A stretch of 64,000 bases of DNA from Thermoplasmata archaeon (GTDB lineage: Archaea > Thermoplasmatota > Thermoplasmata > RBG-16-68-12 > JAFNFQ01): contig JBGPQV010000007.1 of assembly GCA_041489255.1 (NCBI GenBank), positions 4,006 through 68,005 on the forward strand, read 5' to 3'. Position numbers and translations under genes: made by a program. The stretch's first letter is position 1. Each line of letters opens with the position of its first letter. Positions 7,629-14,311 of the stretch are shown here, in pieces. Below the pieces are notes generated by a model. The model was not told the origin of the DNA and searched no databases. It was given only the letters and a program-made list of their open reading frames with translations.

Positions 7629-8546
7629 CTATGAGACGGGTCTCGGCAGCAGCCCCGCCTTCTCCACGATCTCCGCCACCTTCTCCTCCCACTCTATCGC
7701 CATGATGTGCACGCCGTGCACGCCCTCGATCTTCCTCAGCGCCTCGATTGTCTCCAATGCTATCTTGACGCCCTCGGCCTTCGCGTCGCTCGCCTTCTTC
7801 ATCCTCTCGACAAGCGATTCGGGCACGGTCATCCCGAGCACCTTGTCATTGACGAACTTCGCAGCGCCGAGTGATTTCAGAGGGACCACACCGCCGATGA
7901 TGTGAACCTTCTTGTGCAGCCCCTGGGCTCTCACTGCCGCCATCCACTTCTCGAACCTCTCGACTTCGAAGACACCTTGTGTCTGCACAAAGTCGGCTCC
8001 CGCCACGACCTTCTTCTCCAGCCTCGGGACCCTGTACTCGGCCGGGTCCGCAAGGGGGTTCTCGGCCGCCCCGATGAACAGCTTCGGCGGGACGTCCATA
8101 ACCTCACCGTTCTGGAACTTCCTCTCGTCCCGCATCCTCCTGGCCATGTCGATCATCTGTATCGAGTCGAGGTCGAACACGCCCTTGGCCTCTGGATGGT
8201 TTCCGAGCTTCTGGTGGTCTCCCGTCAGCAAAAGGACGTTCCTTATACCGACCGCCGACGCCCCGAGCAGGTCGCTCTGGATCGCGATCCTGTTCCTGTC
8301 TCTGGCGGTGATCTGCATGACCGGCTCGATGCCCTCTTTCAGAAGTATCGTTGCGGCGGCGAAACTCGACAGCTTGACTATCGCGGCCTGATTGTCTGTG
8401 ATGTTGGCAGCGTCGACCTTGCCCTTGATCAGCTTGGCCTTCTGCCTGATGACGTCGCCGCTCGCGCTCTTTGGCGGGCCGCATTCGCAGGTGACGGCGA
8501 ACTGCCCCTTCTCCAGGACCTTCTCGAGGTTGCTCCCCGCCTTCAT
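7629..8546 (-). CDS. metF: methylenetetrahydrofolate reductase (MetF-type, acetogen-like small form)
   Basis: MTHFR fold motifs (FAVTCECGPPKSASG..., LLLTGDH); last gene of hdrCBA-mvhD-metVF operon. Confidence 0.85.
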   Translation of the reverse strand: MKAGSNLEKVLEKGQFAVTCECGPPKSASGDVIRQKAKLIKGKVDAANITDNQAAIVKLSSFAAATILLKEGIEPVMQITARDRNRIAIQSDLLGASAVGIRNVLLLTGDHQKLGNHPEAKGVFDLDSIQMIDMARRMRDERKFQNGEVMDVPPKLFIGAAENPLADPAEYRVPRLEKKVVAGADFVQTQGVFEVERFEKWMAAVRAQGLHKKVHIIGGVVPLKSLGAAKFVNDKVLGMTVPESLVERMKKASDAKAEGVKIALETIEALRKIEGVHGVHIMAIEWEEKVAEIVEKAGLLPRPVS

Positions 8547-9214
8547 GGGACCACCTCTTCCTCCTTAACGGTCTTCCGAGGCCCGCCGTGCCCGGCGATA
8601 TCCCACCTTTTTGGCGGTTGAATCTTCGACATCCATTCGAGCCTGTTCGTCGCCTTGAGCTTCTCGTAGATGAGGGCCCACGCGCAGTCCGTCTCCGGGT
8701 CGACCTCGCACTTGCCGTTCTGCGAGCCGCCGCAGGGGCCGTTCATCATCTGCTTGGCGCACCTCGTGATCGGGCAGATGCCGCCGGTGAGATGGAGCAT
8801 GCAGTCCCCGCACGCCCTGCAGTTCTCCAGCCAGACGGCATGCTTGGTCGGGAAGCCCATCATTGTCGTGTTCAGCGCGGGAAGCACTGGCTTCTCCGGG
8901 TACATCTCGGCGACCAGCTGTACTCCGATGCCGCAGGCCATCGAGAGAACCGCGTCGGCGTCCCTGACCTTGTCCTTCATCTCGCCGACCCATTCCCTCT
9001 CGCACTGCCTCTCTATCGTGCCCTCGACGACCTTGACCTTGTGTCCGGTCTTCTTGCCGCTGATTCTGAGGAGCGATGACAGGACGCTGACTTCCTTCTC
9101 CCCTCCGGCGAGGCAGACCGTGACGCATGTCCCGCAGCCGGCGACGAATATCCTGTCGTAGCCCTTTGTCATCTCAAGGATCTCTGCGACCGGTTTCCGC
9201 TCGCCGACGATCAT
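8543..9214 (-). CDS. metV: MetV-like zinc-finger / MTHFR C-terminal domain protein
   Basis: Cys-rich (CGTCVTVC, CRACGDCMLHLTGGICPITRCAKQMMNGPCGGS); 4-nt overlap with metF and mvhD. Confidence 0.75.
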   Translation of the reverse strand: MIVGERKPVAEILEMTKGYDRIFVAGCGTCVTVCLAGGEKEVSVLSSLLRISGKKTGHKVKVVEGTIERQCEREWVGEMKDKVRDADAVLSMACGIGVQLVAEMYPEKPVLPALNTTMMGFPTKHAVWLENCRACGDCMLHLTGGICPITRCAKQMMNGPCGGSQNGKCEVDPETDCAWALIYEKLKATNRLEWMSKIQPPKRWDIAGHGGPRKTVKEEEVVP

Positions 9215-9687
9215 TTCGCGACCCCTTTCCTCAGGGGGCTCGGCCCGAGCCTCCTCACCTTCTCTGTCATGTCCGCGATCATCTCGGCGAACTTGCTTGC
9301 CATGGCGGACGAGAGGTTGTACATCTCGACCCGCTCAGGCTCGATGCCGACCTCCTCAAGCAGCTTCTTTGCGGCGGCGACCCTCTTCTTCGCCCTGAAG
9401 TTGCCGTTCATGAAGTGACAGTCGCCATCGAGGCAGCCCATGACCATGACGCCGTCCGCGCCGTCCTCGATTGCCCTGAGCAGGTAGAGTATCTCGATCT
9501 TCCCGGAGCACGGGAGCCTGATGACCCTCGCGTTCGGCGGGTAGTTCAGCCTCATCGAGCCCGCAAGGTCCGCGGCGGCGTATGCGCAGAAGTTGCAGCA
9601 GAAAGCGACTATCCTCGGCTGGAACGACGCGTTCGCCTCAATCCCCTTCTTCACCGCCGCCACCGCCTCAGCCGCCATTCGTCGCAC
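9211..9687 (-). CDS. mvhD: MvhD-like (methyl-viologen-reducing hydrogenase delta subunit) [2Fe-2S] protein
   Basis: IVAFCCNFCAYAAADLAG...RLPCSGKIE...MGCLDGDCHF motifs typical of MvhD. Confidence 0.85.
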   Translation of the reverse strand: MRRMAAEAVAAVKKGIEANASFQPRIVAFCCNFCAYAAADLAGSMRLNYPPNARVIRLPCSGKIEILYLLRAIEDGADGVMVMGCLDGDCHFMNGNFRAKKRVAAAKKLLEEVGIEPERVEMYNLSSAMASKFAEMIADMTEKVRRLGPSPLRKGVAK

Positions 9688-12927: not shown

Positions 12928-13746
12928 TTTCCTTCCTCCCGCCAGGGCGGCCATGATCGGACGGGTTGACACCACGTTCATGTCGAGCGCCGCCTCGGCT
13001 CCGAGCCCGAAGGCGAGCGCCATCAGCTGAGTGAAATAGACCACGGGAATCTGACCGTCCTTTCGGCCAGCCAAGGCTTCTTTCTGGTAGAGGTCGAGCA
13101 TCATCCCGCACATCGGGCAGAGAGTCACGACCGCGTGAGCGTCCGTCGCCTTGGCGGTTTTGAGGATCATCCCGCCCATCTCCACCGCCCGCGAGTGCTT
13201 CGAGAGCGTTATCGGCCCGCCGCAGCACTTCATCTTGGCGGCGAACCTGACCGGCTCCCCGCCGAGCGCCCTCGTCAGCTCGTCGAGCTTCTTCGGGTCC
13301 TCCGCGCTGTCGAACGTGGGGTCGACGCGCGTCAGGAGACACCCGTAGTACGAGGCGACCTTGAGCCCCTTGAGCGGCGCACTCACCTTTTCCCTCACCG
13401 CCGCCAGCCCGACGTCATCGTACACGAGCTGAAACAGGTGCTGCACCTTCGGCGGCCTCGCATTCTGCTTCGCGAGGTGCTCCTCCGCGCCCTTGAGGTT
13501 CTTGAAGCACGCGGAGCAGGGCGTGACGAGCGATCCTCCTTTCACCATCCCGAGGTTCCTTGTCCCGAGGCCGAGGGAGATGTCGTAGCTGTAGGAAGCG
13601 GTCGGCGTGGCCCCGCAGCAGACCCAGTCGGGCATCTCCTCGAGGAGAACGCCGAGGGCCTTGCAGACCGCGATCGCGGAGTCGCCGTATTCCACGGCGG
13701 TGGAGTGGACCGAGCAGCCGGGGAAGTAGGGGTAGGACCTCGCCAG
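12925..13746 (-). CDS. hdrB: heterodisulfide reductase subunit B (CCG domains); start apparently non-canonical (CTG) or upstream of first GTG
   Basis: two CCG-type Cys motifs; conserved N-terminal SYPYFPGCS is encoded upstream of first GTG (13695) with AGGAGG 9 nt before an in-frame CTG (13746). Confidence 0.75.
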   Translation of the reverse strand: MARSYPYFPGCSVHSTAVEYGDSAIAVCKALGVLLEEMPDWVCCGATPTASYSYDISLGLGTRNLGMVKGGSLVTPCSACFKNLKGAEEHLAKQNARPPKVQHLFQLVYDDVGLAAVREKVSAPLKGLKVASYYGCLLTRVDPTFDSAEDPKKLDELTRALGGEPVRFAAKMKCCGGPITLSKHSRAVEMGGMILKTAKATDAHAVVTLCPMCGMMLDLYQKEALAGRKDGQIPVVYFTQLMALAFGLGAEAALDMNVVSTRPIMAALAGGRK

Positions 13747-13747
13747 C

Positions 13748-14311
13748 TCAACCGCCCTCCTTGAACTTCTTCTTCAGGTCATTCAGGTCCGTCATGCTCT
13801 TGGCGGGCAGACCGAGCTTGCCGTGCTTGAACAGGGAGAGGGCGGCGCCTCGCATGGACAGCAACGAGAGCGGCGAGGTGCGCATGGCGTAGCGGATCAT
13901 CATCTCGGGCTCGTAGACCCGCCCCCTCTTGAGCACGTTCCTGACGAACTCCTCCGCCGAGGCCCTGTCCTCGAGATCCGCGATGCCGGCGGCTATGGAC
14001 ATGTTGCGCAGCTTCATCATCAGGTCCGCGACGGGGATTCCCTTGGGGCATCTCGTCGTGCATGCGAGGCAGTTCGTGCATAGGAAGATCATCTTCGACT
14101 TCAGCGCCGCCTCGATGTCTCCTCGGGCGACGAGGTTCACGATCATCCGGGGAGTGTAGTCCGCGAGGGGCGCGACACCGCAGGAACCCGAGCAGGTGCC
14201 GCACTGCATGCATCTCCTGAGCAGCTTCAGGTCCTTGAAAGCGAGAAGTCTCGACTCCCACGCAGAGTCACGAGATGCCTGTGCGCTGACCTGCTTGGCG
14301 AACTCGGCCAT
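13748..14311 (-). CDS. hdrC: heterodisulfide reductase subunit C (2x[4Fe-4S])
   Basis: CMQCGTCSGSC and CTNCLACTTRC ferredoxin motifs; ATG at 14311; ORF-track upstream extension overlaps tRNA region and is not coding. Confidence 0.8.
   Translation of the reverse strand: MAEFAKQVSAQASRDSAWESRLLAFKDLKLLRRCMQCGTCSGSCGVAPLADYTPRMIVNLVARGDIEAALKSKMIFLCTNCLACTTRCPKGIPVADLMMKLRNMSIAAGIADLEDRASAEEFVRNVLKRGRVYEPEMMIRYAMRTSPLSLLSMRGAALSLFKHGKLGLPAKSMTDLNDLKKKFKEGG

Follow-up and report, generated by a model that had tools for sequence, protein, structure and literature searches.

A predicted Hdr-linked MetVF methylene-tetrahydrofolate reductase operon with a fused, asymmetric HdrA in a Thermoplasmata archaeon

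Results and discussion

The window analysed here, a stretch of 64,000 nucleotides from contig JBGPQV010000007.1, carries on its minus strand at 7629-14311 six co-directional genes: hdrC, hdrB, hdrA and mvhD, together with metV and metF. They are predicted to encode an Hdr-type ('type IV') MetVF methylene-tetrahydrofolate (methylene-H4F) reductase homologous to the systems of Moorella and Sporomusa. For this overall picture, with the wiring of redox centres proposed below, we estimate a probability of roughly 60 %. The extent and gene list of the cluster had been proposed in an earlier sequence-only reading of this DNA and proved correct on comparison with open reading frames (ORFs), Pfam and NCBIfam. 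The genes are:

13748..14311, minus strand: hdrC, 187 aa; two CxxCxxCxxxC(P) [4Fe-4S] motifs; Pfam Fer4_8/Fer4_17
12925..13746, minus strand: hdrB, ~273 aa; Pfam CCG twice; both CCG motifs (C...CCG...CxxC twice)
9668..12928, minus strand: hdrA, 1086 aa; NCBIfam HdrA models E = 0
9211..9687, minus strand: mvhD, 155-158 aa; [2Fe-2S] electron-transfer subunit; PF02662 FlpD 3.4e-51
8543..9214, minus strand: metV, 223 aa; PF12225/DUF5981 8.5e-38, 128 bits
7629..8546, minus strand: metF, 305 aa; PF02219 (MTHFR) 4.9e-42; MetV-associated type of methylene-H4F reductase

The E-values of these assignments leave no room for chance matches, and the Fe-S and flavin cofactor motifs are intact in all six proteins. 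HdrC additionally matched the NCBIfam model CoB_CoM_SS_C at 5.6e-21, which is under the cut-off of the model, and MvhD matched VhuD (2.5e-49) as well as the C-terminal part of HdrA2 (7e-45). In HdrB, all cysteines of both CCG motifs, which belong to non-cubane clusters, align with those of the solved methanogen HdrB. The genes are tightly packed, with overlaps of 4 nt each for hdrB/hdrA, mvhD/metV and metV/metF, an overlap of 11-20 nt for hdrA/mvhD and a gap of 1 nt between hdrC and hdrB. A divergent tRNA-Gln gene (anticodon TTG; 14513-14587, plus strand) bounds the operon on the upstream side. A long minus-strand ORF that seemed to extend hdrC upstream to 14605 crosses this tRNA gene and was rejected as spurious; public gene calls contain the same 187-aa HdrC product. 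A scan for bacterial promoters and terminators, a tool not designed for archaea, revealed nothing useful in the operon.

The start codon of hdrB is probably the CTG at 13746, directly behind the hdrC stop and the single spacer nucleotide. It is preceded by AGGAGG 8 nt upstream, and hdrB presents no ATG, GTG or TTG ahead of the conserved YPYFPGC motif (junction 13744-13750). HdrB chains in the PDB align to the product from residue 4. The homologous start codon is TTG in the relatives L003 and L059 and CTG in the window and both public assemblies. Public gene calls begin hdrB at an internal GTG (13695, 256 aa), which costs the first CCG motif its initial cysteine. Compared with L003, the closest relative, HdrB is 69 % identical, the other five subunits 87-96 % (hdrB: window 12925-13746 versus L003 7177-7977). 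A frameshift behind the low HdrB identity was rejected, since the nucleotide alignment contained scattered substitutions only. For the hdrC/hdrB junction, explanations by selenocysteine, a frameshift or a fusion were dismissed as well: the alignment with L003 comprised plain substitutions and the change of the start codon from TTG to CTG.

Anatomy of the fused HdrA

As judged from domain and motif alignments, HdrA is a single chain that reproduces an asymmetric HdrA dimer: module 1 contributes a canonical-like FAD site, Cys197 and one inserted ferredoxin domain, module 2 the sole N-terminal cluster domain (N-domain) and the sole C-terminal ferredoxin domain. The protein had been described beforehand as two complete HdrA modules. 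It does have two sites of the dinucleotide-binding type GGGIAG, at aa 9 and 594, and a CSxxCC motif at each of aa 263 and 833, but only module 2 is a full HdrA; module 1 represents residues 143-563 of the structure 5ODC. The parts of the gene are:

11639..12928, minus strand: hdrA module 1, aa 1-430; thioredoxin-reductase (TrxR)-like FAD domain with inserted 2x[4Fe-4S] ferredoxin domain (Cys104-167)
11174..11590, minus strand: N-terminal cluster domain of module 2, aa 447-585; Cys456, 458, 491, 516 and 548; aligns to 8rvu HdrA 10-188
9932..11173, minus strand: FAD domain of module 2, aa 586-999; GGGIAG at 594; CSRFCC; E794/K843
9668..9931, minus strand: C-terminal 2x[4Fe-4S] ferredoxin domain, aa ~1000-1086; Cys1016-1056; Pfam Fer4_7/Fer4_21 at 1009-1061; aligns to 8rvu 494-653

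Module 1 aligned with HdrA of M. thermolithotrophicus (5odc_A) from query residues 2-427 to 143-563 at 6.2e-139 (phmmer). Its Cys53 and Cys56 correspond to Cys194 and Cys197 of 5ODC and its E220/K273 to E356/K409; the CSxxCC motif reads CSKVCC. It lacks both the N-terminal cluster domain and the ferredoxin domain at the C-terminus. Module 2 (aa 447-1086) has the full set of N-terminal cluster, flavin, inserted ferredoxin and C-terminal ferredoxin domains, the second inserted 2x[4Fe-4S] ferredoxin domain (Cys688-743) lying within its FAD domain. At the positions of Cys194/197 it presents 'AVYPQEIPGG' instead of cysteines. The NCBIfam models HdrA2 and HdrA align to aa 450-1079. The summed HdrA2 score (NF040770), 1174 bits, exceeds its cut-off of 1100 merely by adding up the matches of both modules; the best stretch covers model positions 1-641. 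In canonical HdrA the [4Fe-4S] cluster of the N-domain is completed by Cys197 of the partner protomer (PMC9012536), and E356/K409 are regarded as marks of the bifurcating flavin (PMC9430772, citing Appel 2021). This E/K pair occurs in both modules here.

An AlphaFold2 model of HdrA (54 homologues) formed a single compact body with a pLDDT of 88.7 and a pTM of 0.90. In Foldseek, the model of module 1 superimposed on the HdrA core of 8rwn_A with a TMt of 0.96, an rmsd of 1.3 A and 51 % identity, the model of module 2 on the whole of 5odc_A with a TMt of 0.89 and an rmsd of 2.9 A. Pfam detected no PF14691/GltD domain in HdrA, and the region aa ~156-606 of P0042, the 1491-aa HdrA of the bacterial locus L057, is without counterpart.

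Fused HdrA among homologues and in known systems

The fusion had been presented as a peculiarity of this archaeon, a view that the homologues contradict. Among the 120 best-scoring HdrA hits from a collection of 5.8 billion proteins, 107 were fused forms of 980-1130 aa, originating from Thermoplasmata, Bathyarchaeia, Methanofastidiosa, Methanolliviera, Asgard archaea, Chloroflexi and others. These were aligned together with the HdrA of the window. In all 108 sequences, Cys194/197 were confined to module 1, and the cysteines of the N-domain were invariantly present between the modules. The C-terminal ferredoxin domain aligned in 106, the other two being gapped there. Equivalents of E356/K409 were present throughout in module 1 (108/108) and less regularly in module 2 (88/108 and 99/108). 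The inserted ferredoxin domain of module 2 was restricted to 24 of the 108, namely this Thermoplasmata clade and a group of ~1115 aa; it accounts for the length of 1086 aa here against the usual ~1004 aa. This variant is not always paired with MetVF: a 1117-aa homologue (L061) was adjoined only by an MvhD-like gene. The literature holds precedents. Complementary Cys197/N-terminal domain patterns in tandem or fused HdrAs of anaerobic methanotrophic archaea (ANME) and in the HdrA of the Moorella MetFV-Hdr were interpreted as a built-in heterodimer (Chadwick 2022, PMC9012536), two-flavin HdrAs were mapped in Moorella (162.8 kDa) and Sporomusa (101 kDa) (Kremp 2022, PMC9430772), and fused HdrAs were listed in Asgard and TACK archaea (PMC11237513). 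The fused HdrA is the standard, already described form for the Hdr-linked MetVF enzyme type.

The match to the Moorella-type cluster in gene content and order, noticed in the sequence-only reading, was borne out. MetFV-HdrABC-MvhD of Moorella thermoacetica comprises the same six subunits in the same order (Mock et al. 2014; via PMC9430772, PMC6085437), its accessions are consecutive (Poudel 2018, PMC6085437), and the bacterial locus L057 is colinear. The Moorella type shares the sequence of a truncated, Cys197-bearing module followed by a full module, as checked on P0042 as a stand-in. Differences reside in the inserted domains. P0042 has in module 1 an insertion of ~450 aa with a GltD-type Fer4_20 domain, absent from the window HdrA, and is without the inserted ferredoxin domain that the window HdrA possesses in module 2; the published Moorella HdrA agrees in both respects (PMC9430772). 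In contrast to Moorella, the operon lies outside an acs/fhs cluster and the host is archaeal. HdrCBA-MvhD-MetVF of Sporomusa ovata is similar in having a two-flavin HdrA without GltD, with an extra N-terminal TrxR-like module ahead of a full HdrA and the E/K signature in the N-terminal module, as in module 1 of the window (PMC9430772). However, this HdrA of 942 aa has no inserted ferredoxin domain in the C-terminal module and the E/K pair in one module only, whereas the window HdrA has both features in both modules.

Among archaeal systems, ANME HdrA3/4 (PMC9012536) and the fused HdrAs of Asgard and TACK archaea (PMC11237513) resemble the window HdrA in their complementary Cys197 and N-domain halves, an arrangement read as a built-in heterodimer. 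Compared with ANME HdrA3/4 as described, the module order is reversed, the Cys197 half coming first, and the link to MetVF is added. The methanogen MvhAGD-HdrABC complex (5ODC; Wagner et al. 2017) matches both modules in fold, and the cofactor motifs of HdrB and HdrC are conserved. Its HdrA, unlike that of the window, is a symmetric homodimer of ~650-aa chains with N-domain and Cys197 together, MvhAG as partners, CoM-S-S-CoB as substrate and no MetVF. In HdrA2B2C2 of Methanosarcina (NF040770) a single HdrA is fused C-terminally to MvhD (777 aa); here mvhD is a separate gene.

Acetogen-type MetF and MetV

Sequence comparison assigns both proteins to the acetogen type. With MetFs from bacterial hdr-metVF clusters, the MetF of the window shares 57-66 % identity, with that of E. 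coli 22 %. To the counterparts in L057, MetF is 57 % identical and MetV, over its full length, 48 %. A small neighbour-joining tree with E. coli as outgroup placed MetF within the hdr-linked group. Scores against canonical models were far below the cut-offs (TIGR00676: 80.7 bits, cut-off 293.7; PRK09432: 27, cut-off 382), and matches to all MTHFR chains in the PDB were weak (21-41 bits). A grouping with canonical MetF, which would have spoken against the acetogen type suggested earlier, was thus not observed. All 13 cysteines of MetV are conserved with bacterial MetV. The PDB yielded no solved structure for MetV or a MetVF-Hdr complex. MetFs from metagenome-assembled genomes (MAGs) of Actinomycetota, 'Subteraquimicrobiales' and Chloroflexi (P0216, P0238, L062) are 62-66 % identical and therewith about as near as those of other Thermoplasmata clades, which suggests a transfer of the cluster between bacteria and archaea.

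The operon in relatives

Loci were compared with one genome per species. In all seven Thermoplasmata loci, mvhD-metV-metF follows directly downstream of the fused hdrA, in an order conserved at 55-93 % identity; relatives labelled Methanomassiliicoccales carry the hdrA-mvhD-metVF cluster too. Two of the seven (L001, L060) miss hdrCB upstream of hdrA-mvhD-metV-metF, and thus resemble the MetFV-HdrA-MvhD clusters reported for Ca. Syntrophoarchaeum. The same gene set occurs in three bacterial lineages, in identical order in L057 and with hdrCB after metVF in Chloroflexi L062 and in Hakuba Actinobacteria (PMC7325909). L057, a bacterial MAG, has RACo-cooC-acsD-acsE-DUF3786-fhs and directly thereafter hdrC-hdrB-hdrA-mvhD-metV-metF. 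In L062, hdrA-mvhD-metV-metF-hdrCB adjoins fhs, folD, fchA and thyX; its mvhD is a probable assignment (142 aa, no Pfam match).

These observations bear on the idea of a mere co-location, according to which MetVF supplies methyl-H4F for methionine synthesis and the Hdr genes are functionally unrelated. The window encodes no other C1-pathway genes, as this idea would have it. Against it, start and stop codons overlap by 4-20 nt along the cluster, the order is maintained over the divergence of the Thermoplasmata, the gene set recurs in the bacterial lineages, and contacts between the subunits were demonstrated experimentally in S. ovata (PMC9430772). We regard a chance neighbourhood as highly improbable.

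The Thermoplasmata clade at 55-58 % identity carries, convergent to metF, a gene for an acsE-like pterin-binding methyltransferase that is 41-48 % identical to AcsE of L057:

L001, 7613-8383: acsE-like methyltransferase
L052, 13288-14061: acsE-like methyltransferase
L005, 3828-4598: acsE-like methyltransferase
L060, 15300-16076: acsE-like methyltransferase

In this clade, genes for DUF3786, folylpolyglutamate synthase and an FAD oxidoreductase of 467 aa lie in the vicinity, and L060 has fhs within 10 kb. Neither the window nor L003 and L059, its closest relatives, has acsE-like, DUF3786, folylpolyglutamate synthase or fhs neighbours; the window lacks this FAD oxidoreductase as well. For Thermoplasmata orders sister to the Methanomassiliicoccales, Fhs, FolD, MTHFR, HdrA-D and MvhAGD have been reported, and CO dehydrogenase/acetyl-CoA synthase (CODH/ACS) in some only (PMC11264602).

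The neighbourhoods also inform on the pterin. MetF might act on methylene-tetrahydromethanopterin (H4MPT) and replace Mer, as proposed for ANME-1 and Ca. Syntrophoarchaeum; the possibility was raised for archaeal MetF, with the MetFV-HdrA-MvhD clusters of the latter organism (Chadwick 2022, PMC9012536). It is very unlikely here: the bacterial MetFs at 57-66 % identity adjoin fhs, folD and acsE, the Thermoplasmata relatives have folylpolyglutamate synthase, fhs and the acsE-like gene beside the operon, and the window contains no H4MPT-pathway genes.

Outside the MetVF clusters, more than 20 loci of Bathyarchaeia have hdrCB-fused hdrA-mvhD, often in several copies, without metVF or an adjacent partner module. 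In a Methanofastidiosa MAG (L063 4765-11960), the genes downstream of hdrC-hdrB-hdrA-mvhD encode an FrhB/FdhB-like protein and a molybdopterin oxidoreductase. The unit of fused HdrA, MvhD and HdrBC behaves as a core combined with different substrate modules.

Proposed electron transfer

In canonical HdrA, electrons from MvhD pass through the ferredoxin domain at the C-terminus to the flavin. One electron pair is then transferred to HdrBC via the cluster of the flavin's own TrxR domain, the other to ferredoxin via the N-domain cluster, including the partner's Cys197, and the inserted ferredoxin domain (PMC9012536). In the fused protein the module-1 flavin would be the bifurcating site, because it alone is surrounded by its own Cys197 and by the N-domain and C-terminal domain of module 2; module 2 would serve mainly as scaffold and wiring. 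Three paths may meet at this flavin. The first would lead over HdrC and HdrB to MetV and MetF and the methylene-H4F/methyl-H4F couple, the second to ferredoxin by way of the Cys197/N-domain cluster and an inserted ferredoxin domain. The third path would connect the C-terminal ferredoxin domain and MvhD with a partner encoded elsewhere, for which an MvhAG-type hydrogenase is the most economical guess. The methylene-/methyl-H4F couple has a potential of about -200 mV, the heterodisulfide of -140 mV. Methylene-/methyl-H4F could replace the heterodisulfide as high-potential partner, with ferredoxin at the low-potential side. NADH is an unlikely third partner, judged from domain content, since HdrA has no equivalent of the GltD-like NAD(P)H domain known from Moorella. 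The reaction may run either way, reductive toward acetyl-CoA or oxidative from methyl groups. Pull-downs in S. ovata revealed contacts among MetVF, Hdr and MvhD (PMC9430772). For the archaeal proteins, a physical complex with methylene-H4F reductase activity would be indicated by translational coupling and by the conserved synteny.

Several points weigh against this assignment as an Hdr-type MetVF reductase with a bifurcating core. Even for the Moorella and Sporomusa enzymes, bifurcation is a proposal. From S. ovata, only MetVF was purified as a stable unit (PMC9430772). Since L001 and L060 have no hdrCB next to hdrA-mvhD-metVF, the coupling to MetVF may not require HdrBC. Module 2 retains the E/K pair and an inserted ferredoxin domain, hence its flavin may have a role of its own. 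Genes for CODH/ACS, fhs, folD and mvhAG were found neither within the 64-kb window nor in the ~10 kb beyond each end (~85 kb in total); hydrogenase genes in general are missing from the window. A Wood-Ljungdahl methyl branch, derived earlier from the operon alone, goes beyond this evidence. Such a pathway would be suggested by the gene neighbourhoods of relatives and by published MAG surveys (PMC11264602).

The S. ovata data lead to a different proposal, in which MetVF is ferredoxin-dependent and HdrA-MvhD-HdrBC are a non-bifurcating wire to a hydrogenase or membrane partner, as modelled for that bacterium. There, MetVF alone reduces methylene-H4F with reduced ferredoxin, and the Hdr/MvhD subunits were loosely associated and recovered in the membrane fraction (PMC9430772). 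A simple wire is nevertheless unlikely in view of the invariant E356/K409 in module 1 of all fused HdrAs and the conserved three-branch cofactor set around the module-1 flavin; moreover, neither the operon nor its immediate surroundings encode a membrane subunit.

HdrB itself could be catalytic. It would then be a true disulfide reductase for CoM-S-S-CoB or another disulfide, and MetVF would feed or draw electrons of methyl-/methylene-H4F; for example, methyl-H4F might be oxidised and disulfide and ferredoxin reduced. The complete CCG cysteines, aligned with those of the solved methanogen HdrB, fit such a function, as do the HdrA-D and MvhAGD of related Thermoplasmata orders (PMC11264602) and the heterodisulfide made by Methanomassiliicoccales (PMC10804542). 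However, the nearest relatives by marker gene are Thermoplasmata MAGs of non-methanogenic type with no known source of CoM-S-S-CoB (PMC11264602), the same CCG motifs are present in bacterial acetogen clusters, where the heterodisulfide is absent, and L001 and L060 manage without hdrCB. We consider a disulfide-reducing HdrB improbable.

Within the preferred reading, that of an Hdr-linked MetVF reductase with bifurcation at module 1, a more specific form may be formulated tentatively: an NAD(H)-independent, minimal acetogen-type enzyme in which electrons from H2, entering over MvhD and an MvhAG encoded elsewhere, would be bifurcated to methylene-H4F and ferredoxin, with two ferredoxin ports owing to the rarer, second inserted ferredoxin domain in module 2. 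In this full specification it is doubtful.

Host and genomic surroundings

The window encodes aIF2-gamma, Pelota, an archaeosine tRNA-guanine transglycosylase and endonuclease dU, in accordance with the archaeal origin recognised before. Nearest named relatives of aIF2-gamma were 'Euryarchaeota archaeon RBG_16_67_27' and Thermoplasmata MAGs (69-70 % identity), then Methanomassiliicoccales MAGs (66-67 %). On account of aIF2-gamma and the names of the nearest matches, the host is placed in the class Thermoplasmata as an uncultured archaeon. An identical HdrA is deposited under a generic name in the NCBI assembly GCA_041481165.1 and the JGI metagenome 3300052989.

Just past the right end of the window lies an A-type ATP synthase operon (L066 1827-9802). 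Past the left end, the JGI assembly has an insertion sequence element (rve transposase) and an N6/N4 DNA methyltransferase (L067 837-4045). At 4076-6134 (plus strand), the gene of a GHMP-family kinase comes after that of a Dfp-type flavoprotein (phosphopantothenoylcysteine synthetase/decarboxylase); the two are probably the archaeal coenzyme A pathway pair, which is syntenic with the operon in L059. Six very large proteins of 699-1805 aa are encoded:

752-3805, minus strand: secreted-type domains
18423-23840, plus strand: secreted-type domains
44387-46909, minus strand: secreted-type domains
46879-48978, plus strand: secreted-type domains
49012-51477, plus strand: secreted-type domains
57993-62630, plus strand: match to a Big_9 Ig domain only

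The secreted-type domains of the first five are CARDB, PKD, BNR, VWA, lamin-tail or DUF7948 with SBBP beta-propeller repeats. At the right end of the window (62617-63543, minus strand) lies a gene for an exosortase/archaeosortase-like membrane protein.

Conclusions

The essentials of this operon are already precedented in the literature, and the finding mostly confirms inferences from genomes of the same class. A putative Met complex was flagged in Methanomassiliicoccus intestinalis (Poudel 2018, PMC6085437). This organism and the orders UBA10834 and RBG-16-68-12 (PMC11264602) belong to the same archaeal class and have the same gene set; the reports are gene inventories without HdrA anatomy or operon structure. 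The added value is modest: a variant that has no NADH module and carries ferredoxin domains in each half, and a fused HdrA core whose distribution is modular. In acetogenesis, the reduction of methylene-H4F is the step whose energetics are puzzling, and for the redox partners of the Hdr-type enzyme there are so far only candidates. The lack of an NADH module together with the ferredoxin domains on both halves shortens the list of possible partners. In the modular picture, one asymmetric HdrA core with HdrBC and MvhD has MetVF as its partner in Thermoplasmata, Chloroflexi and Bacillota-like bacteria; in Methanofastidiosa the partner is an FrhB-like/molybdopterin module. If the NAD(H)-independent form were true, the archaeal enzyme would offer a less complex system in which to identify the second redox partner of Hdr-type methylene-H4F reductases, and flavin-based bifurcation would drive a folate-based C1 pathway in archaea.

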